A stretch of DNA of 64,000 nucleotides from the sequence record MK373778.1. One strand, written 5' to 3'. Origin of the DNA: Escherichia phage vB_EcoM_WFbE185. A program made the translations under genes and the position numbers. Shown piece after piece: positions 3,630 through 55,646 of this stretch; position 1 is the first letter of the stretch; every line of letters begins with the position of its first letter. The notes below the pieces were generated by a model. The model was not told the DNA's origin and made no database searches. It was given only the letters and a program-made list of their open reading frames with translations.

Positions 3630-3664
3630 TTATTAAAATTAAAATGAAGCTCCCGAAGGAGCTT
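3630..3664 (-). terminator. intrinsic terminator hairpin (AAGCUCC-UUCG-GGAGCUU) followed by U-rich tract, overlapping gene 39 stop
   Basis: Perfect 7-bp GC-rich stem with UUCG tetraloop on minus-strand RNA, then CAUUUUAAUUUU. Confidence 0.6.
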
Positions 3665-5527: not shown

Positions 5528-5546
5528 AAAAGGGCCGAAGCCCTTA
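5524..5546 (-). terminator. intrinsic terminator (AAGGGC-UUCG-GCCCUU + UUUUUGCUUU)
   Basis: GC stem with UUCG loop and U5 tract directly after the stop of the 140-aa gene; the U tract overlaps the MotA box. Confidence 0.6.
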
Positions 5547-8322: not shown

Positions 8323-8353
8323 ATTTTTTCTCTCTTTGTTTAAATTGAATTCA

Positions 8354-8382
8354 TTATACTCCATCCATCCTTGGATGTACAA
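8354..8382 (-). promoter_or_regulatory. promoter with palindromic spacer (TGTACA, CATCC-TT-GGATG, TATAAT)
   Basis: Variant of the repeated hairpin-promoter element seen at 8911, 51151 and 52171. Confidence 0.4.
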
Positions 8383-8910: not shown

Positions 8911-8940
8911 ATTATACTCCAACCATCCTTGGTTGTAAAC
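8911..8940 (-). promoter_or_regulatory. early promoter (-35 GTTTAC, -10 TATAAT) with 6-bp stem hairpin CAACCA-AGGA-TGGTTG in the spacer
   Basis: A 46-bp element identical to the one at 51135-51180. Confidence 0.55.
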
Positions 8941-14935: not shown

Positions 14936-14964
14936 AACAAAAAAAGGAATCCCGAAGGATTCCT
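14936..14964 (-). terminator. intrinsic terminator after soc (AGGAAUCC-UUCG-GGAUUCCU + U7)
   Basis: Perfect 8-bp stem with UUCG loop followed by UUUUUUUGUUU on minus-strand RNA. Confidence 0.7.
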
Positions 14965-14972
14965 TAAATTAT

Positions 14973-20770: not shown

Positions 20771-20777
20771 CCCGAAA

Positions 20778-20798
20778 GGAGACCGAAGTCTCCTTTTT
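20778..20798. terminator. GC-rich hairpin (GGAGAC-N4-GUCUCC) at the 3' end of gene 41; T-tract on the plus-strand side
   Basis: Minus-strand RNA has a UUCG loop but is followed only by UUUCGGGG; plus-strand reading is followed by TTTTTATT; orientation ambiguous. Confidence 0.4.
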
Positions 20799-22251: not shown

Positions 22252-22614
22252 TTAAAAGAATTTAAATTTTTTCTTGGTTCGTTCATTAAAAGCTTGTTGT
22301 ACTTGCATTGTAACACATTTTTCAACATGTGGTGCAAGTTCTGCTTTTCTGTCCTGGTCAAGAACTGCAAAGTCCATTACGATTTTACCATCAACCCAGT
22401 CTAGTTTTGTAATATAGACTATATGATGGGAACCGTCTTCAAGTGTAATCAGAATCTCTTGAATGACATTTTCCATTGCTGAACGGATAATTTTAAGAGA
22501 TTCATTAAACACTCGTTCTTTGCGAATGTCTTCCCCTTCCGAAGAAGGGGATTCATCAACGATTTCTAGATTTAAATCATCGAGATTATTCATCGAAATC
22601 TTCCATTTTGTCAA
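22252..22614 (-). CDS. hypothetical protein (120 aa) at T4 gene 40 position
   Basis: Position between 41 and uvsX; no motif recognised. Confidence 0.4.
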   Translation of the reverse strand: MTKWKISMNNLDDLNLEIVDESPSSEGEDIRKERVFNESLKIIRSAMENVIQEILITLEDGSHHIVYITKLDWVDGKIVMDFAVLDQDRKAELAPHVEKCVTMQVQQAFNERTKKKFKFF

Positions 22615-29686: not shown

Positions 29687-29830
29687 CTAGTTAAAGCATT
29701 CATACTTTGCTTGTAGTCCAATCATAATCCATCCAATTACAAGTGGTGGAATCATTACTGGAGCCGTTAAGCTCCAGTAGATAGTCATGACAAGCATCAA
29801 TAGTAAAAGTCCTATTGTTATTGCTTTCAT
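29687..29830 (-). CDS. small hydrophobic membrane protein (47 aa), not in ORF track
   Basis: MKAITIGLLLLMLVMTIYWSLTAPVMIPPLVIGW...; ATGA start/stop overlap with the SIS gene. Confidence 0.4.
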   Translation of the reverse strand: MKAITIGLLLLMLVMTIYWSLTAPVMIPPLVIGWIMIGLQAKYECFN

Positions 29831-30462
29831 TGTTCGCCTCGTAACATGGCACCTAGTGCACCGCCTGGATGGAACTTAAGGAAATCATTAGAGGTAAATC
29901 CACGTTCAGACGAAAGGTTGATAGCAAACGTATCGATAAGTGCTAACAACAATGTAGTAGACATTGTCGGAGCTAAAGAGTTCTCGTCAACTTCTACCGC
30001 GATACCGGTACAGAACGTATAATCAAAAAGAGCTTCGTATTCTTGTGGAATGTCAGGGTTACAATGTAACAGAATCTGTTTAACCTGAGGACGAATCATA
30101 CGAAGATGTTTAGCAACACCTATCATTTCTTCAGTCTTACCAGAACGGCTGATGTGAACTAATACATCATTAGGTGCAATAAATCCTGCGTCACCATGAG
30201 AATAATGCCCAGTGTTCAAGTACATACTTGGGATACCGAGTGAAGCAAAAGTCTCGGAAGCTTTAGTTGCGATATTAGCGTTCTTACCAACACCTGTAAT
30301 AATTACACGACTTTCATAATTACTCAGTCCAGGGCGACGAAGAGTTTCAAGAATAGCATTATACCGAGCAGGGTTTTGACTAATTACTTTAGCCATAGTG
30401 GCAAGAGATGAAGCTTGTTTTACGATTGCGTCAATAGCGATAGTGATTGGTGTAGTTTTCAT
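29827..30462 (-). CDS. SIS-domain sugar-phosphate isomerase (arabinose-5-phosphate/phosphoheptose isomerase-like)
   Basis: 211 aa; SIS signature VIITGVGKNANIA and SRSGKTEE. Confidence 0.65.
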   Translation of the reverse strand: MKTTPITIAIDAIVKQASSLATMAKVISQNPARYNAILETLRRPGLSNYESRVIITGVGKNANIATKASETFASLGIPSMYLNTGHYSHGDAGFIAPNDVLVHISRSGKTEEMIGVAKHLRMIRPQVKQILLHCNPDIPQEYEALFDYTFCTGIAVEVDENSLAPTMSTTLLLALIDTFAINLSSERGFTSNDFLKFHPGGALGAMLRGEQ

Positions 30463-30505: not shown

Positions 30506-33214
30506 AAAATCAAACATATCGAACAGAGATGCTTTCTTCTCGTAATCGAGTTTAGCTGCTGATGTGAATCCTTCAAGTGGTTTAATAAATGTCTTCTCAA
30601 GGAGAACAGTGTAGTCCATCCAATGAAGTACATCGTCTTTAATTAAATCTGTGATTTCAGTACCAGAAGGCCATGCGATACATTTATCACCGAACGGGTT
30701 TCCATCACGTAAAGGCAGAACGTATACCTTTTCGCCTTCTACAACTTGTGGAGCATCAATATTACCTTTGATAGCTCGGTTATATGTCAGAATTCCACGA
30801 ATATGGAACGGGCATTTAGGTCCTGGATATCCACCTACATCATATTTAGCAATGTTATTCGCAGAAGATACCGACGCGATGCTAATATAATTCAATTGAC
30901 GGAATTCTTTTTCAAACTCTTTAAAATATTCTTGTAATGATTCTTCACCTTCTTGAAGCATACGACGAATACATTCTTTAAGAGCTTTCTGTACTGCTTT
31001 AGGGGTCGAAGATTTCTGAGTTTCTAGACCCATGATTTTGAGTTTAGGCTCAGCGTAACGAGTACCTTCCATATCCCACACGTTTAATGCATAACGTTTC
31101 TTACCAGTCCAAAATCCGCCAATACCTTTAGAACCGAGCGGAGGACCAGCGATAGCTTCTCGGTCCATGAACATTAAGTGTTGTTTATTGTTCATGTATT
31201 CACACATTTCACGGAAACCTTTATCAATAGCTGGTTCCATACGTTCACGTGCAAACTTATCTAAGAAGTCTACCCAATGGTTGGTATCACGGAATTTAGA
31301 TTCACCAACCTTATCAATAATTTTATCCGCAGATACGTAAATGGAGTCTGTATCACCATAAAGAACGAAAGCTTCACCTTCTGTACCACAAACTTCATTC
31401 AGATATTCATTAACTTTACGTTCAATCCACTGTAAAGCCATTTGCCCGAATGTTGTGATTGCAGTAGCATTACGCAAATCATAATAACGGAACCAAACGT
31501 TGCCAAGTGCACCATAAAGTGAGTTGATGAGCAATTTACGGTTAATTTGTGCAGTCATACCTGCAACTTCAGTACGTTGAGCTCTAAACAACATTTCATT
31601 AAGAGATTTAGCAGACAACTTTTTAATCTTTTCTTTAATCTCATCGCTGAAGTCGAAACGATAATCAACATCTAATGGTTCGTCAACAGAAAGATTAGGA
31701 TTATGCAATGCCTCTTTAATTATTTCACCATTACGTTGAGCTGCAAGCATGTAACCTTTATGTTCTTTACGTTGATTAAAGACCTTAGTGATTTCAGTTG
31801 GAACTACACCATCACGGTCTTTATAATACATCATGCCGTTAGGAGAACAACTGTACACATCTGAAGGACGTTCAGCGATTGCGTTAATATAATCATGTAA
31901 TGGAGCTACTTTAAACGTTCCTGCTATTGTTTCTGGGCTAATATTCACTTGGCGAATGATGCTTGGATACAGAGATGTAAGGTCGAAACTCATTACATAT
32001 TTGTATCGATTTGGAATAGGTTCCTTAACAAAAGCGCCAGGATAAGGTTGAACCGGGTGAGAACGACCTTGTGGAATCACCTTGTTCTGCTCTTTAAGGC
32101 TATTAAAAATAATAGCATCCCATGTTTTAATTGGGCTAAACACAGATTGAATCTGTATCTTAGCATAATAACCCATGTCCAAACTCAAGTTGATGAACTG
32201 ACGCTTAGCATCAATTTGCAATACACGATACACGTCGATAATGTTATAAGAAATATATCGTTGGTGATTGCTTTCACGAAGCTTAGAAATAGGGCCGTCG
32301 TATTTCAGTTTACCAACGTTCAATTCAAATTCTGAAATGTAATCCAGAGAATACGACGGTTGATTGGTAAAAGAGAATTTTTTGTAAAGGTCAATGTAAT
32401 CAAGAACAGAGATACCGAACAATGTAATGATTTCACGAGAACCATACATGTTTTCGATAACTTTAACACGAGTTTTACGATGCGGTGATAAACGTTTCGC
32501 AGTAGATTCGCCAAAAATATTCTTGATTCGGTTATACACATATGGAATATCAAATGACTCAACGTTCCATCCAGTCAAAATGACAGGAGTTTTCTGTTGC
32601 CAGAAGTTGAGATATTCCATCAACAATTCTTTTTCGTTATTGAATGGCATATAAATGATTTTATCGATAATTTCGGATGGAACTTCATCACCGCCTTGTT
32701 CTTGAAGCTTAGCAGCGATTTCAATAGACCATTCTTCTACATTACCATACGGAGAATTCAAAAGGTCAAATACATAAAACCTGTCATCAATTGAGTCATA
32801 ATGGGTGATAGCATCAATCGGATGTTTTGCTTGTGACGGCTCAGGGAACCCATCCGGAGATGTTACTTCGATGTCGAAGTTAGCCACACGAATTTTTGTA
32901 TGGTCGTATTTGATTTCATAGTTATAAGTGTCAGACAAATACGCCAATTTGAAATCGTCCATGCCGAGTGCTTCAAGTCCGATATCTTCCATGCGTTTAA
33001 TCCATTGGGAGGCATCACGCATATTAGCGAACAACTTACGAGTACACGGCTTACCGTAGATATCGAAATATTTCGTAGCCTGACTTTCCGGACAATGAGC
33101 AAACAGTGATGGTTTATATTCTACTTCACGAGTACGTTCACGGCCATTAGAATCGATGTAACGTTCAAAAATTGAATCACCAATCTGTTCAACCGTTAAG
33201 TAAAATTCTTTCAT
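30503..33214 (-). CDS. 43: DNA polymerase gp43 (family B), 903 aa
   Basis: Exo motifs FDIEV and YNIIDV; pol motifs SLYPSII, KILINSLYG and YGDTDS; length and N-terminus MKEFYLTVEQIGDSIFERYIDSNGRERT match my recollection of RB69 gp43. Confidence 0.95.
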   Translation of the reverse strand: MKEFYLTVEQIGDSIFERYIDSNGRERTREVEYKPSLFAHCPESQATKYFDIYGKPCTRKLFANMRDASQWIKRMEDIGLEALGMDDFKLAYLSDTYNYEIKYDHTKIRVANFDIEVTSPDGFPEPSQAKHPIDAITHYDSIDDRFYVFDLLNSPYGNVEEWSIEIAAKLQEQGGDEVPSEIIDKIIYMPFNNEKELLMEYLNFWQQKTPVILTGWNVESFDIPYVYNRIKNIFGESTAKRLSPHRKTRVKVIENMYGSREIITLFGISVLDYIDLYKKFSFTNQPSYSLDYISEFELNVGKLKYDGPISKLRESNHQRYISYNIIDVYRVLQIDAKRQFINLSLDMGYYAKIQIQSVFSPIKTWDAIIFNSLKEQNKVIPQGRSHPVQPYPGAFVKEPIPNRYKYVMSFDLTSLYPSIIRQVNISPETIAGTFKVAPLHDYINAIAERPSDVYSCSPNGMMYYKDRDGVVPTEITKVFNQRKEHKGYMLAAQRNGEIIKEALHNPNLSVDEPLDVDYRFDFSDEIKEKIKKLSAKSLNEMLFRAQRTEVAGMTAQINRKLLINSLYGALGNVWFRYYDLRNATAITTFGQMALQWIERKVNEYLNEVCGTEGEAFVLYGDTDSIYVSADKIIDKVGESKFRDTNHWVDFLDKFARERMEPAIDKGFREMCEYMNNKQHLMFMDREAIAGPPLGSKGIGGFWTGKKRYALNVWDMEGTRYAEPKLKIMGLETQKSSTPKAVQKALKECIRRMLQEGEESLQEYFKEFEKEFRQLNYISIASVSSANNIAKYDVGGYPGPKCPFHIRGILTYNRAIKGNIDAPQVVEGEKVYVLPLRDGNPFGDKCIAWPSGTEITDLIKDDVLHWMDYTVLLEKTFIKPLEGFTSAAKLDYEKKASLFDMFDF

Positions 33215-33220
33215 TTAATT

Positions 33221-33242
33221 TCCTTTAGACGAGTTATTGTCT
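33221..33242 (-). promoter_or_regulatory. gene 43 translational operator: hairpin AGAC-AAUAACUC-GUCU plus SD AAAGGA
   Basis: 4-bp stem, 8-nt loop AAUAACUC immediately 5' of the SD; gp43 autoregulation through such an operator is established T4/RB69 biology. Confidence 0.55.
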
Positions 33243-33261
33243 TTTGTTTGTTGATGAACTT

Positions 33262-33292
33262 ATTATACTCCAAATGGGACCGAAGTCCCATT
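33262..33292 (-). promoter_or_regulatory. -10 TATAAT preceded by hairpin AUGGGAC-UUCG-GUCCCAU after regA
   Basis: Hairpin with UUCG loop directly followed by TGGAGTATAAT; variant of the repeated hairpin-promoter module. Confidence 0.45.
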
Positions 33293-33295
33293 GCT

Positions 33296-33664
33296 TTAAT
33301 TACCAATTGTATATTTTGCTTTCAAAGTCCAGTCATCTTTCTGTTTAAAAGAGATAACACGGAAGTTATTAGTCAGGCCAAACAGATCTTCACGAGCAGA
33401 GTCTTCAATAACAATCAAGCCCCAGTCTTCAAGCAACTGAGCAATCGAATCACGTCGCTGATAGTCTTCACCATCGATATCAACCTGACGTCCGTCCATA
33501 CGCAGCATTTCTTTAAAGTGGACGATGTAGTATTTACCTTGCTTTTGGAGGATATGACAGGACTGATAAAGGATTTTATCCTTGTTATTAGCGATGCCCA
33601 TACGGGTCAAAGTCTCTTTGACTTTCAGAAAATCTTCAGGGTTCTTCAATTTAATTTCAATCAT
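33296..33664 (-). CDS. regA: translational repressor RegA
   Basis: MIEIKLKNPEDFLKVKETLTRMGIANNKDKILYQSCHILQK matches T4 RegA; start set at Met4 by analogy. Confidence 0.85.
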   Translation of the reverse strand: MIEIKLKNPEDFLKVKETLTRMGIANNKDKILYQSCHILQKQGKYYIVHFKEMLRMDGRQVDIDGEDYQRRDSIAQLLEDWGLIVIEDSAREDLFGLTNNFRVISFKQKDDWTLKAKYTIGN

Positions 33665-33666
33665 TT

Positions 33667-34230
33667 TTACCATTCCAATGCTAATTTTTTAAATTGTTTT
33701 TGTTCTTTCACATTTTTTGTAACTTCTTTGAGAAACTCATCAGTGACCATGGCCTTCAGTTCTTTAAGGACTATTGGCAACTTGTTATTTTTTTCAAGGA
33801 GCCGCTTATACTCGGTAGCATCATTCATGTTGATTGTGTAATGTTTCATCAACAGTTTGATAACTAGTAACTCTGAAGTGTCTTCGACTAGTTTAGCCCA
33901 TTTAGAGAATCGACGACCACGCGGAATTGCAGCCATCATATAGTTGAAGTGCGCTTCATCACTTAATTCAGAACCGACTAAGTTCATCATGTAAACGGCT
34001 GGCATACATTCTGGGAACTGGGATAATGAGTTCTCAACCATAAATTTTGAGTAGTCGACCTGAGCAATTGACATAGATTTCTTTTCATTAATAGCATTAA
34101 TGATTTTAAAGAATTCATTCTCAGGTTTTTCTTTAAACATGTCAGCACATTTTTGAATCGCATCAGCGTCGTTAGACTTCCATGCAATTTGGTGCTCGTT
34201 AAGTTGGACGTCATCATCAAATAAGTTCAT
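33667..34230 (-). CDS. 62: clamp loader small subunit gp62
   Basis: 187 aa, same as T4 gp62; N-terminal and C-terminal sequence closely similar. Confidence 0.85.
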
Positions 34231-34231
34231 A

Positions 34232-35194
34232 TTATTTCCAAGTCAGTTCGCAGGTCAGTTGAAGAAGCATATACATAACATGTAATTCAATATTACTTGC
34301 TAATCCATGAAACTTATTATTTTCGCCTGCAATTTCATAAAGCGAAATAATACTTTTACCTGGTGCAACTTTGTCATAACACTCAGAAACTAATTTATCG
34401 ATGAACCATGAATAATCAGCGGCATATTTTGGAGCTAACGCACGAAGCTGTTTGATATCTTTATTTTTCATTGCTTCTATGACATCATCTACCGTGCCAC
34501 GATCATTGGTTACAATCGACAAAATACCTGCATCAAGAACACCTTTAGACGAGTACTGGTCTAATTGACCAATTGTACGTCGAAAGTCCGGGAAGTTCTT
34601 TTTAACCAGAGCTGCAACAACTTTCATATCAGCGATTTCGATATTTTCGTTCTTACAGATTTCAACCATGCGATGAATCATTTTCTTCATCATTGAGATT
34701 TTATCTTCTTCGGTTGGACGTCCGAATTCGATAACTCGACAACGACTACGTAACGGTTCGATAATTCCATCGATGTTGTTGGCAGTAATAATAATAGAAC
34801 AGTTACTAGAGAATTCTTCCATGAATGTACGAAGGTGACGTTGTGATTCAGCGAGGCCACTACGGTCAAATTCATCAATAACAATAACTTTAGGCTTGCC
34901 TTCCATTGAGACTGAACGAGCGAATGCAGTTAATGGGCCACGCACAAAATCAATCTTACAATCAGAACCGTTGACGAACATCATTTCAGCGTTGATATCG
35001 TTACATAATGCTTTTGCCACGGTTGTTTTACCGGTACCAGGAGAAGGAGAGTGTAAAATAATATGAGGAAGTTTTCCTTTAGATACTAAAGACTTGAATG
35101 TTTCATGGTCATACGCGGGCAGAATACATTCGTCAATGGAAGAAGGACGATATTTCTGTTCTAGAATGTGTTCTTTGGAATTGATAGTAATCAT
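34232..35194 (-). CDS. 44: clamp loader large subunit gp44 (AAA+)
   Basis: 320 aa; Walker [11 protein letters not shown]; N-terminus [17 protein letters not shown] matches T4 gp44. Confidence 0.9.
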
Positions 35195-39902: not shown

Positions 39903-39926
39903 AAAAAGGAACTCCGAAGAGTTCCT
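39902..39926 (-). terminator. intrinsic terminator (AGGAACUC-UUCG-GAGUUCCU + U6)
   Basis: Perfect 8-bp stem with UUCG loop and U-tract; the U-tract merges into the MotA box. Confidence 0.65.
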
Positions 39927-45303: not shown

Positions 45304-47117
45304 TGGTGTTTAACCCTATGCATGATTTCTTTATTTTTACCGAGATTAAATCCGCGTTCGTTCGGATTTCCCAAATAACCGCATGTTCTTCTTATGGTGT
45401 TCATCTTTTTAGGATCAGTTTCTCCACAAATAGAACAAACAAATCCGTTTTCAGTAGGAGTCATTTCATGGGTACTTCCACATGTAAAACATTTATCCAC
45501 TGGCATATTAACACCAAAATAATCTAAATGTTGTGCAGCATAATCCCAGACGGCCTCAAGCCCCTTTAAATTGTTTTTCATATCTGGAAGTTCAACATAA
45601 GAAATGTGACCGCCGGTCGCTATGAAATGATAAGGAGCTTCACGAGAAATTTTTTCAAACGGAGTAATATTTTCTTCTACTGAAACATGGAAACTGTTAG
45701 TGTACCAGCCTTTATCTGTAACATCCTTTACACTTCCATATTTTTCTGTATCAAGTTTACAGAAGCGATAACAAAGGTTTTCAGCAGGAGTAGAATATAA
45801 ACTAAAAGCAAATCCAGTTCTTTCAGACCACTGTTTAAGATGAGCATTCATTTTAGTTAAAATTTCTTGCCCAATATCACGACCAACAAGAATATTCAAT
45901 TCGTGAATACCAATGTATCCTAAAGACACTGAACTTCTACCGTTTTTAAATAACTCAATTATGTCGTCATCAGGTTTAAGACGAACCCCGAATGCACCTT
46001 CTTGGTAAAGAATAGGAGCAACAGTCGCTTTAACTCCTTTTAAGGAACTAATTCTACACATCAAAGCTTCAAAACACAGGTCCATTCGTTCGTTAAATAG
46101 CTCAACAAATTTCTGTTCATTGAACTGTGTTCCAATATAAGAATCTAACGCAATACGAGGAAGATTCAGTGTTACAACACCAAGATTATTACGTCCATCA
46201 AGAATTTCATTGCCAGTCGAATCTTTCCATACACTCAAGAAACTACGGCAGCCCATTGGAGAAACAGGAACTGAAGAACCGGTAATAGCTTTATTATTCT
46301 TAACCGAAATAATGTCAGGATACATTCTTTTGCTTGCACATTCTAACGCAAGTTGTTTAATATCATAGTTCGGATCATCTTTATAAAGATTAACACCTTC
46401 TTCAACAAACATAACAAGTTTAGGAAAAATAGGAGTTATTCCATCACGACCAAGACCTTTAATGCGGTTTTTAAGAATTGCCTTCTGAATCATTCGTTCA
46501 GTCCAGTCAGTTCCCGTACCAAATGTAATTGTTACAAAAGGCGTTTGTCCGTTTGAACTAAAGAGAGTATTTACTTCATATTCATAAGCTTGGAACGCGT
46601 CATAGACATCTTTTTCTGTTTTGGATTGAGCATAATTCAACGCATCAGCAATTTGCCATTTTTCTGCATCTTCAACATGTTTAGCGTATGTGCGTTTAAC
46701 ATAAGGAGAAAGAACTTTATCGACATTCGCAAATGTAGTTCCGCCATACTGGTGTGAAGCAACTTGTGCGGTAATTTGTGCCATAATTGCAGTAGCAACG
46801 CCAATAGATTTAGGCGTTTCAATTTGAGCATTGCCTAATTTAAATCCATTCTCAAGCATCCCCTTTAAATCGACTAAACAGCAATTGGTAAACGGAAGAG
46901 CAGGAGAATAATCAATATCATGCATGTGAATGATTCCGCTTTCATGCGCATTCATAATAAAAGACGGGACCATATTTTTGGCAATGTGCTTAGACACAAT
47001 ACCAGCCATAAGGTCCCGTTGAGTTGGAAAAACACGAGAATCTTTATTAGCATTCTCGTTCAAAAGATCTTTATTAGTTTTATAAATTAATCCTTCAATT
47101 TCTTTTTCAATTTTCAT
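45300..47117 (-). CDS. nrdD: anaerobic ribonucleoside-triphosphate reductase NrdD (uninterrupted)
   Basis: 605 aa; C-terminal glycyl-radical motif RRTCGYLG and zinc ribbon CFTCGS...CSICG; no intron. Confidence 0.9.
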   Translation of the reverse strand: MKIEKEIEGLIYKTNKDLLNENANKDSRVFPTQRDLMAGIVSKHIAKNMVPSFIMNAHESGIIHMHDIDYSPALPFTNCCLVDLKGMLENGFKLGNAQIETPKSIGVATAIMAQITAQVASHQYGGTTFANVDKVLSPYVKRTYAKHVEDAEKWQIADALNYAQSKTEKDVYDAFQAYEYEVNTLFSSNGQTPFVTITFGTGTDWTERMIQKAILKNRIKGLGRDGITPIFPKLVMFVEEGVNLYKDDPNYDIKQLALECASKRMYPDIISVKNNKAITGSSVPVSPMGCRSFLSVWKDSTGNEILDGRNNLGVVTLNLPRIALDSYIGTQFNEQKFVELFNERMDLCFEALMCRISSLKGVKATVAPILYQEGAFGVRLKPDDDIIELFKNGRSSVSLGYIGIHELNILVGRDIGQEILTKMNAHLKQWSERTGFAFSLYSTPAENLCYRFCKLDTEKYGSVKDVTDKGWYTNSFHVSVEENITPFEKISREAPYHFIATGGHISYVELPDMKNNLKGLEAVWDYAAQHLDYFGVNMPVDKCFTCGSTHEMTPTENGFVCSICGETDPKKMNTIRRTCGYLGNPNERGFNLGKNKEIMHRVKHQ

Positions 47118-51150: not shown

Positions 51151-51180
51151 ATTATACTCCAACCATCCTTGGTTGTAAAC
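51151..51180 (-). promoter_or_regulatory. early promoter with spacer hairpin (copy of the 8911-8940 element)
   Basis: 46-bp identity with 8895-8940: gttaagatagaaagattatactccaaccatccttggttgtaaactg. Confidence 0.55.
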
Positions 51181-52170: not shown

Positions 52171-52199
52171 ATTATACTCCAACCATCCTTGGTTGTACA
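52171..52199 (-). promoter_or_regulatory. early promoter with spacer hairpin (third copy; -35 TGTACA)
   Basis: Shares ttatactccaaccatccttggttgta with the 8911 and 51151 elements. Confidence 0.5.
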
Positions 52200-55620: not shown

Positions 55621-55646
55621 CCCCCTAAAAGGGCCCGAAGGCCCTT
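55621..55646 (-). terminator. intrinsic terminator (AAGGGCC-UUCG-GGCCCUU + UUUUAGGGGG)
   Basis: GC stem with UUCG loop immediately after the nucleotidyltransferase gene stop. Confidence 0.55.

Follow-up and report, generated by a model that had tools for sequence, protein, structure and literature searches.

In the genome of Escherichia phage vB_EcoM_WFbE185 (MK373778.1), the DNA polymerase gene follows the translational repressor gene regA at the end of a minus-strand array that reads gene 44, gene 62, regA and an ORF of 903 aa in the ORF list of the window, i.e., the whole 64,000-nt stretch of DNA analysed here (Table 1). The product of the 903-aa ORF is identical to RB69 gp43 at 898 of 903 positions and matches the RB69 polymerase entries of the PDB. 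RegA is 99% identical to RB69 RegA in a tblastn comparison, and homologous records label the gene as regA translation repressor. Placement of the phage in Mosigvirus follows from a 601-nt region around this boundary with matches in 206 phage records, of which 154 reach at least 95% identity; the Mosigvirus records among these matches include RB69, HX01, Shf125875, APCEc01, SA35RD and others. The regA–gene 43 intergenic region itself is 100% identical to that of RB69 (NC_004928).

Table 1. Coordinates of the genes and signals at the regA–gene 43 boundary and of related elements elsewhere in the window.
Feature	Position	Strand	Basis or remark
gene 44	35194..34232	-	ORF list
gene 62	34230..33667	-	ORF list
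regA, 125 aa, translational repressor	33296..33673; stop TAA 33298..33296	-	ORF list
gene 43, family B DNA polymerase, 903 aa	30503..33214	-	ORF list; regulated gene and repressor
C(UUCG)G hairpin, 8 bp, AAUGGGAC-UUCG-GUCCCAUU	33292..33273	-	sequence, fold, covariation
ACTT core, MotA-box-like	33283..33286	-	end of hairpin 5′ arm and loop; -31..-28
TGGAG and TATAAT	33262..33272; putative -10 at 33267..33262	-	homologue of T4 P43
Predicted gene 43 transcription start	33254..33257	-	5-8 nt past the -10; inferred from T4 P43
gp43 operator hairpin, AGAC/GUCU with loop AAUAACUC	33227..33242; loop 33238..33231	-	sequence, fold, RB69 identity
Single-stranded 3′ part of operator and RBS, AA-AGGA-AAUUAA-AUG	33212..33226	-	SD 33224..33221; ATG 33214..33212
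Other C(UUCG)G hairpins	55646..55629, 39926..39907, 22551..22532, 20796..20775, 14965..14944, 5545..5530, 3664..3647	-	
Early-type promoters with GGAGTATAAT	-10 at 8353-8362, 8911-8920, 51151-51160, 52171-52180	-	

The gap between regA and gene 43 measures 81 nt on the minus strand and carries a UUCG hairpin, a -10 sequence, the operator hairpin and the SD. Read from 33300 to 33212, the RNA runs TAA AGC AAUGGGAC-UUCG-GUCCCAUU UGGAG UAUAAU AAGUUCAUCAACAAACAAA and continues as AGAC-AAUAACUC-GUCU AA AGGA AAUUAA AUG, so that only 3 nt separate the regA stop codon from the first hairpin. An earlier note, made on this DNA from its letters alone, had described a hairpin with an 8-nt loop immediately 5′ of the polymerase SD and, upstream of it, a UUCG hairpin abutting TATAAT. 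Both are present: the former ends 2 nt before AGGA, and 5 nt (TGGAG) lie between the latter and TATAAT. The span given there, 33221-33292, has the SD and the 5′ base of the UUCG hairpin as its exact limits, on the minus strand. When the 96-nt region is folded, its minimum free energy structure includes both hairpins, at -15.9 kcal/mol with z = -2.2; among 200 shuffled sequences, 4 fold as well as the native one.

The hairpin next to the SD is small, with a 4-bp stem within 16 nt and a folding energy of -3.2 kcal/mol on its own. In a gapless alignment of 17 distinct homologues, compensatory changes were found in 4 of 5 stem pairs and 85.9% of cells were paired, a result equalled by none of 500 shuffles; the covariation score was 0.79, compared with 0.29 for shuffled alignments and at most 0.19 when the pairing partners were slid. 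The closing pair is C-G in 11 of these homologues and U.G in the other 6. Loop positions 1-3 and 5-7 (AAU-ACU) are invariant, and variation is confined to position 4 (A, C or U), plus position 8 in one locus, which gives the natural loops AAUAACUC, AAUCACUC and AAUUACUC, with AAUAACUG at the single exceptional locus. The 8-nt loop of the T4 gene 43 hairpin was the segment randomised in the first SELEX experiment (Gold's account, PMC4661202). The variant recovered by SELEX carries -CAAC- in place of the wild-type -UAAC-, and the 2010 review asked whether any phage has it; it is absent from the natural operator loops of the 17 distinct homologues.

T4 gp43 is an autogenous translational repressor (Uzan and Miller, PMC3014915), and its RNA operator is composed of an upstream hairpin and a segment that shares nucleotides with the ribosome binding site; the hairpin measures 18 nt in T4 and 16 nt in RB69, and the loop nucleotides are common to both (PMC3014915). 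The same 2010 review reports RNA-binding studies on the 16-nt operator hairpin of RB69 and cites the RB69 operator work of the Karam laboratory (Wang, Pavlov and Karam 1997; Petrov and Karam 2002). Compared with RB69, the regA-43 region of the present phage is identical base for base, including the 16-nt hairpin, the loop, the SD and the spacing, so that no difference at the RNA level is detectable; gp43 differs by five conservative substitutions. The T4 operator shares the loop AAUAACUC, the 3′ closing G, the position 5′ of the SD and the upstream promoter and UUCG hairpin, whereas its stem (AGCCU/GGGCU) has 5 bp, is closed by U.G and folds at -6.3 kcal/mol, compared with 4 bp (AGAC/GUCU), a C-G closing pair and -3.2 kcal/mol here. 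Counted to the loop, the hairpin follows the -10 at a spacing of 13 nt in T4, compared with 23 nt here. According to the RB69/T4 binding literature, the T4 and RB69 operator RNAs are told apart by T4 gp43, and both are bound by RB69 gp43. The primary papers on the T4 gene 43 operator are reportedly those of Andrake et al. from 1988 and of Tuerk and Gold from 1990.

The proposal in the earlier note that the hairpin represents the operator known from T4-type DNA polymerases is thus supported by an RNA identical to that of RB69, a 99% identical gp43 and the 16-nt hairpin described in PMC3014915. Judged by this identity, the segment 33242..33227 is the gp43 translational operator of the T4/RB69 type, which is already established knowledge. 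Binding by gp43 and translational repression in the present phage are assumed from the RB69 and T4 reports, given the identical RNA and the 99% identical protein.

The loop sequence alone does not single out the site. The octamer AATAACTC occurs in the window at chance frequency (4 matches against 3.55 expected), and its significance therefore rests on context and conservation. Among the 31 AATNACT[C/G] octamers of the window, only one has both a clean flanking stem (4 bp or more) and an adjoining SD and start codon, namely the gene 43 site, and none of the other loop-like octamers was convincing as an additional gp43 target. The copy of AATAACTC at 46440..46433 on the minus strand lies in a stem of five pairs, two of them G-U, apparently has no SD or start codon and is probably a chance occurrence. 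An Rfam scan of 32000-35000 with E values up to 10 returned snoRNA-type matches at chance level, none of them over the site. Rfam lists no family for this operator; given this and the covariation of both hairpins across genera, a curated model could be built.

Transcription of gene 43 can be approached through the T4 homologue. In T4, the middle promoter P43 has its start site at 29933 (Hinton review, PMC2988021 Table 1), which in NC_000866 lies 5 nt past the homologous TATAAT and 40 nt before the ATG; the T4 GenBank records themselves annotate no regulatory features at the site. The stretch TTTGGAGTATAAT is identical in T4 and in the present phage, as is GGAGTATAAT. Since the T4 P43 start lies 5 nt past the homologous hexamer, the TATAAT at the gene 43 site is assigned as the -10 of the gene 43 promoter and as the homologue of T4 P43, and this predicted role is well supported. 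A start at the predicted position would leave a transcript leader that is almost wholly operator. The excellent sigma-70 -10 typical of T4 middle promoters is present here as TATAAT, while a -35 element is represented by only 2-3 of 6 matching positions at any spacing of 16-18 nt, and a sigma-70 promoter scan of the minus strand did not call the gene 43 promoter.

The activator site of this promoter is less clear. The MotA box has the consensus (a/t)(a/t)(a/t)TGCTTtA and lies 12 +/- 1 bp upstream of the -10, with an ACTT variant of the core in T4 P46 (PMC2988021). At the gene 43 promoter, positions -35..-26 read TGGGACTTCG, in which the ACTT core and the following C stand in the canonical place and the rest is mismatched, amounting to about 4-5 of 10 consensus positions; ACTT at -31..-28 is the only core at the canonical distance. 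A search with the canonical MotA-box pattern found no match at the gene 43 promoter on the minus strand. The near-identical Mosigvirus record OL960577 labels its predicted middle promoter 'GCTT(N13-15)TATAAT with 1 bp mismatch', and in T4 P43, where TTTGGAGTATAAT is shared, the GCTT core lies 2 nt farther from the -10 than the 12 +/- 1 rule permits. The box here is poor, and its ACTT core falls inside the UUCG hairpin: the hairpin ends 5 nt before the -10 and its DNA occupies -18..-37, the usual place of the MotA box or -35 element, which leaves the promoter with only the CTT(C) core. Canonical MotA-box promoters number 13 in the window compared with 1.85 expected, nine of them on the minus strand, and this enrichment suggests that the phage uses the T4 middle promoter class. 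In these canonical promoters elsewhere in the window, TGCTTTA stands 11-12 nt from the -10, and the promoters themselves are placed 21-22 nt past their hairpins. For the gene 43 promoter of this phage, MotA dependence is putative.

The UUCG hairpin is the most stable structure of the gap, with -11.7 kcal/mol on its own and a GC-rich 8-bp stem built around a GGGAC/GUCCC core. In a gapless alignment of 22 distinct homologues, 7 of 8 pairs show compensatory changes, the covariation score is 0.59 compared with 0.18 after shuffling, and none of 500 shuffles was as good; 92.6% of cells were paired, a percentage inflated because the script picked the best tetraloop hairpin per locus, whereas compensatory changes at orthologous positions are not inflated by this choice. 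The arrangement of hairpin and TATAAT in T4 is like the present one, with compensatory changes in the stem. UUCG tetraloop hairpins were first noticed in T4 mRNA (PMC4371310). The present hairpin has the same loop and closing pair as the C(UUCG)G hairpins of T4 mRNA and is one instance of that class, with no difference. These T4 hairpins were reportedly described by Tuerk et al. in 1988.

Does this hairpin end transcripts? The tail reads UGGAGUAU past the full stem or AUUUGGAG past the GC core, and the homologues have a U-run of 3-5 U after the hairpin. With its short U-tract, the site was passed over on the minus strand, both here and in T4, by a simple terminator scan that demands at least 5 T in 8; the 'terminator' call on the plus strand at 33273..33292 is the same palindrome read in reverse. 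The GC-rich hairpin of an intrinsic terminator is present, then, while the U-rich tract is not. A predicted rho-independent terminator overlapping the predicted middle promoter is annotated at this place in OL960577, and among the relatives compared the hairpin always stands after the last ORF of the upstream unit. So short a U-tract would suit a weak or leaky terminator, but not a canonical one. A role of the UUCG hairpin as intrinsic terminator or attenuator and as 3′-end stabiliser for 45-44-62-regA transcripts is plausible, and the most economical reading would combine leaky termination with stabilisation of the 3′ end. Where the earlier note combined termination or processing of upstream transcripts and initiation of gene 43 transcripts in one compact element, the initiation part thus holds by homology with T4 P43. 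The 3′-end part is less firm: the covarying hairpin and its short U-run point to it, and the terminator scan leaves the site uncalled on the minus strand.

To place the arrangement in a wider context, viral contigs were scanned with RegA, which yielded 80 loci with RegA identities from 98 to 52%. A recognisable gp43 start lay in the flank of 47 of the 80 loci, as it did in the T4, RB69 and SA35RD loci, and the set for comparison comprised 39 distinct upstream regions of 110 nt before the gp43 ATG. The order GC tetraloop hairpin, short U-run, -10, operator, SD and ATG is kept in these 39 regions, which come from Mosigvirus, Tequatrovirus, JS98-like phages, Tegunavirus (Yersinia fHe-Yen9-01), Escherichia EcS1, Enterobacter CIP9, Citrobacter Moon and Klebsiella phages. 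The tetraloop of the upstream hairpin is mostly UUCG, with UACG, GAAA, UUAC and UCCG as further variants; the homologous -10 usually reads GGAG/GGGG/GTAG-TATAAT, and the operator loop AAU[A/C/U]ACU[C/G]. The AAUNACU[C/G] loop motif is absent from three more divergent groups (L025, L045 and L046-48).

The distance between regA and the conserved block is variable. In many relatives, small ORFs of 54-75 aa are joined to the regA stop codon by TAATATG or TAATG, and even with one or two such ORFs after regA, the hairpin, promoter and operator keep their place immediately before gene 43. Inserts were found at loci L007, L069, L022, L024, L008, L036, L038, L039, L041, L013 and L032; the inserted ORFs belong to at least two unrelated families, '...PIDEQIQYQVKETL...' and '...TVFDLSE...', and the copy at L011 is truncated. 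The window, RB69 and T4 have no small ORFs after regA. In the Klebsiella, Enterobacter and Citrobacter relatives, a separate MotA-like box (TGCTAT, ACTTTA) lies between the hairpin and the -10. The T4/RB69-type arrangement may thus be regarded as a compacted form of a common layout in which a terminator is followed by a middle promoter. What this comparison adds is that in some genera the terminator hairpin stands beside a canonical MotA box, while in the T4/RB69 type the two are collapsed.

Three other explanations of the hairpin–promoter block were weighed. The hairpin might not terminate at all, so that read-through mRNA would be cut 3′ of it, for instance with RegB acting at GG^AG or RNase E acting within the AU-rich -10, and the hairpin would only protect the resulting 3′ end. 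The short U-tract that fails the terminator scan speaks for this, as does the GGAG at 33268-33271 (minus strand), which is unpaired directly 3′ of the hairpin in the fold and would be so in read-through transcripts; moreover, GGAGUAUAAUA agrees with the extension of the strong RegB consensus GG*AGRAYARAA (PMC3014915) at 5 of 7 positions. However, GGAG varies among the homologues (GUAG, GGGG, GGGU, AGAG) while the hairpin and the U-run are conserved, and most middle transcripts with an intergenic GGAG are RegB-resistant (PMC3014915). In addition, GGAGTATAAT recurs in four early promoters as a DNA signal and not as transcribed leader, so that the GGAG is explained by its promoter context. Processing of this kind is unlikely here, if somewhat less so than the two readings that follow. 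One of these treats the palindrome primarily as a DNA signal, a disguised MotA box or activator site with CTT in the loop, whose folding as RNA would be incidental. ACTT does lie exactly at the canonical -31..-28, T4 P46 uses such a core (PMC2988021), and OL960577 annotates a middle promoter with one mismatch; yet the stem pairs covary to keep pairing, for which a protein-binding DNA site has no need, and the homologous loops UACG, GAAA, UUAC and UCCG do not contain CTT. The loop also stands at distances from the -10 that vary by several nt, T4 being 2 nt out of range, and the Klebsiella, Enterobacter and Citrobacter relatives have a separate canonical MotA box after the hairpin. We consider a purely DNA-level signal improbable on these grounds.

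The remaining explanation concerns mobility, in which hairpin and promoter would form a PeSL-type cassette that serves mainly as a recombination site and shuffles small ORFs near gene 43. Gene 43 is flanked by PeSLs in RB49 and phi1, and PeSL-like elements lie at g43 of other T4-like phages (Arbiol et al. 2010, PMC2839356). As at the gene 43 site, PeSLs join a stem-loop to a promoter between genes, and one of their five subclasses has the stem-loop overlapping the -35 region (PMC2839356). The one or two ORFs inserted in relatives sit exactly between the regA stop codon and the hairpin, and PeSL-like early promoters occur elsewhere in the window. In contrast to the gene 43 site, the early promoters of PeSLs are strong, of the sigma-70 type and equipped with a -35 box; here there is no -35 and the sigma-70 scan is silent, and the T4 counterpart belongs to the middle and not to the early class. 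In the relatives, the inserted ORFs are not bracketed by a further copy of the cassette, and regA leads directly into them through TAATATG; a recombination role would in any case leave a regulatory one possible. Of the alternatives this is the most remote.

Taken together, the regA–gene 43 boundary of this RB69-type phage is best read, with a probability of roughly 85%, as a stack of three previously described signals. The stable C(UUCG)G hairpin 3 nt past the regA stop codon would end the 45-44-62-regA unit, probably by leaky intrinsic termination, and would probably also hold up 3′ exonucleases. Gene 43 would then be transcribed from its own promoter, with the -10 TATAAT 5 nt past the hairpin and initiation some 40 nt ahead of the AUG. 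The resulting short leader would consist of the weak 4-bp hairpin with loop AAUAACUC and a single-stranded stretch through the SD; free gp43, off the DNA, would bind this leader RNA and block ribosome access, resulting in autogenous repression. The three parts differ in firmness: the operator half is established, the promoter half draws on the mapped T4 homologue, and the terminator half is plausible and unproven. As a whole, the element is real, functional and already known, and is ordinary for this phage group. Its discovery value is accordingly small, as the operator RNA is identical to that of RB69 and the promoter and UUCG hairpin have mapped or described T4 counterparts.

A more elaborate variant can be imagined for Mosigvirus and Tequatrovirus, in which the same 20 bp would be dual-coded, as the regA 3′ hairpin in RNA and, through a C-UUC-G loop providing the MotA CTT core at -30, as a promoter element in DNA. 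As only 3 nt separate the regA stop codon and the hairpin, the 5′ arm would be covered by a ribosome that completes regA, and this masking would set the level of read-through. If so, read-through into gene 43 would depend on regA translation and hence on RegA autorepression, and RegA, the promoter P43 and gp43 autoregulation would be linked in one 80-nt element. We regard this as speculative and doubtful: neither the sequence of the loop nor its distance from the -10 is conserved, and the UUCG loop as a MotA-box core is retained as a low-probability reading only.

The layout of a hairpin followed by a promoter is recurrent in the window. C(UUCG)G hairpins with stems of 6-9 bp number eight, all on the minus strand, which is the early/middle strand, and none on the plus strand; most of them lie just upstream of promoter-like sequences. 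The hexamer CTTCGG occurs 30 times compared with 15.7 expected, a twofold excess, and none of 100 shuffles of the window reaches 30. The hairpins at 39926..39907 and 5545..5530 are followed by a U-tract and then by canonical MotA-box middle promoters of the form TGCTTTA-N11/12-TAGAAT, with 21-22 nt from hairpin to -10, and two other UUCG hairpins precede early-type promoters with GTTTACA.

Exact copies of GGAGTATAAT number five in the window, all on the minus strand, and the four outside the gene 43 site belong to early-type promoters upstream of ORFs. Two of these promoters have the -35-like box GTTTACA and two have TGTACA; within the spacer between -35 and -10 they carry a mini-hairpin of 5-6 bp, ACCAAGGATGGTT (ATCCAAGGATGGAT at 8353), followed by GGAGTATAAT. 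In this organisation the four resemble the PeSL cassettes of RB49 and phi1 (PMC2839356).

At the regA end of the gap, TGCTTTAATTACCAATTGTATATTTT (33292-33317, plus strand) matches the MotA-box middle-promoter pattern, is directed antisense into regA and abuts the hairpin. As a promoter candidate it was rejected, as its -10-like part is not conserved at loci with another ORF ahead of the hairpin, and the T4 sequence is TGCTTAA; the match is probably a by-product of the regA C-terminal codons. On the sense strand, AAGCAA before the hairpin is conserved in many relatives of the compact type. Just past gene 43, an ORF of 211 aa (29827-30462, minus strand) corresponds by position and length only to RB69p055, which is annotated as arabinose 5-phosphate isomerase; in RB69, RB69p055 is followed by other sugar-metabolism-like ORFs, and T4 has different genes downstream of gene 43.
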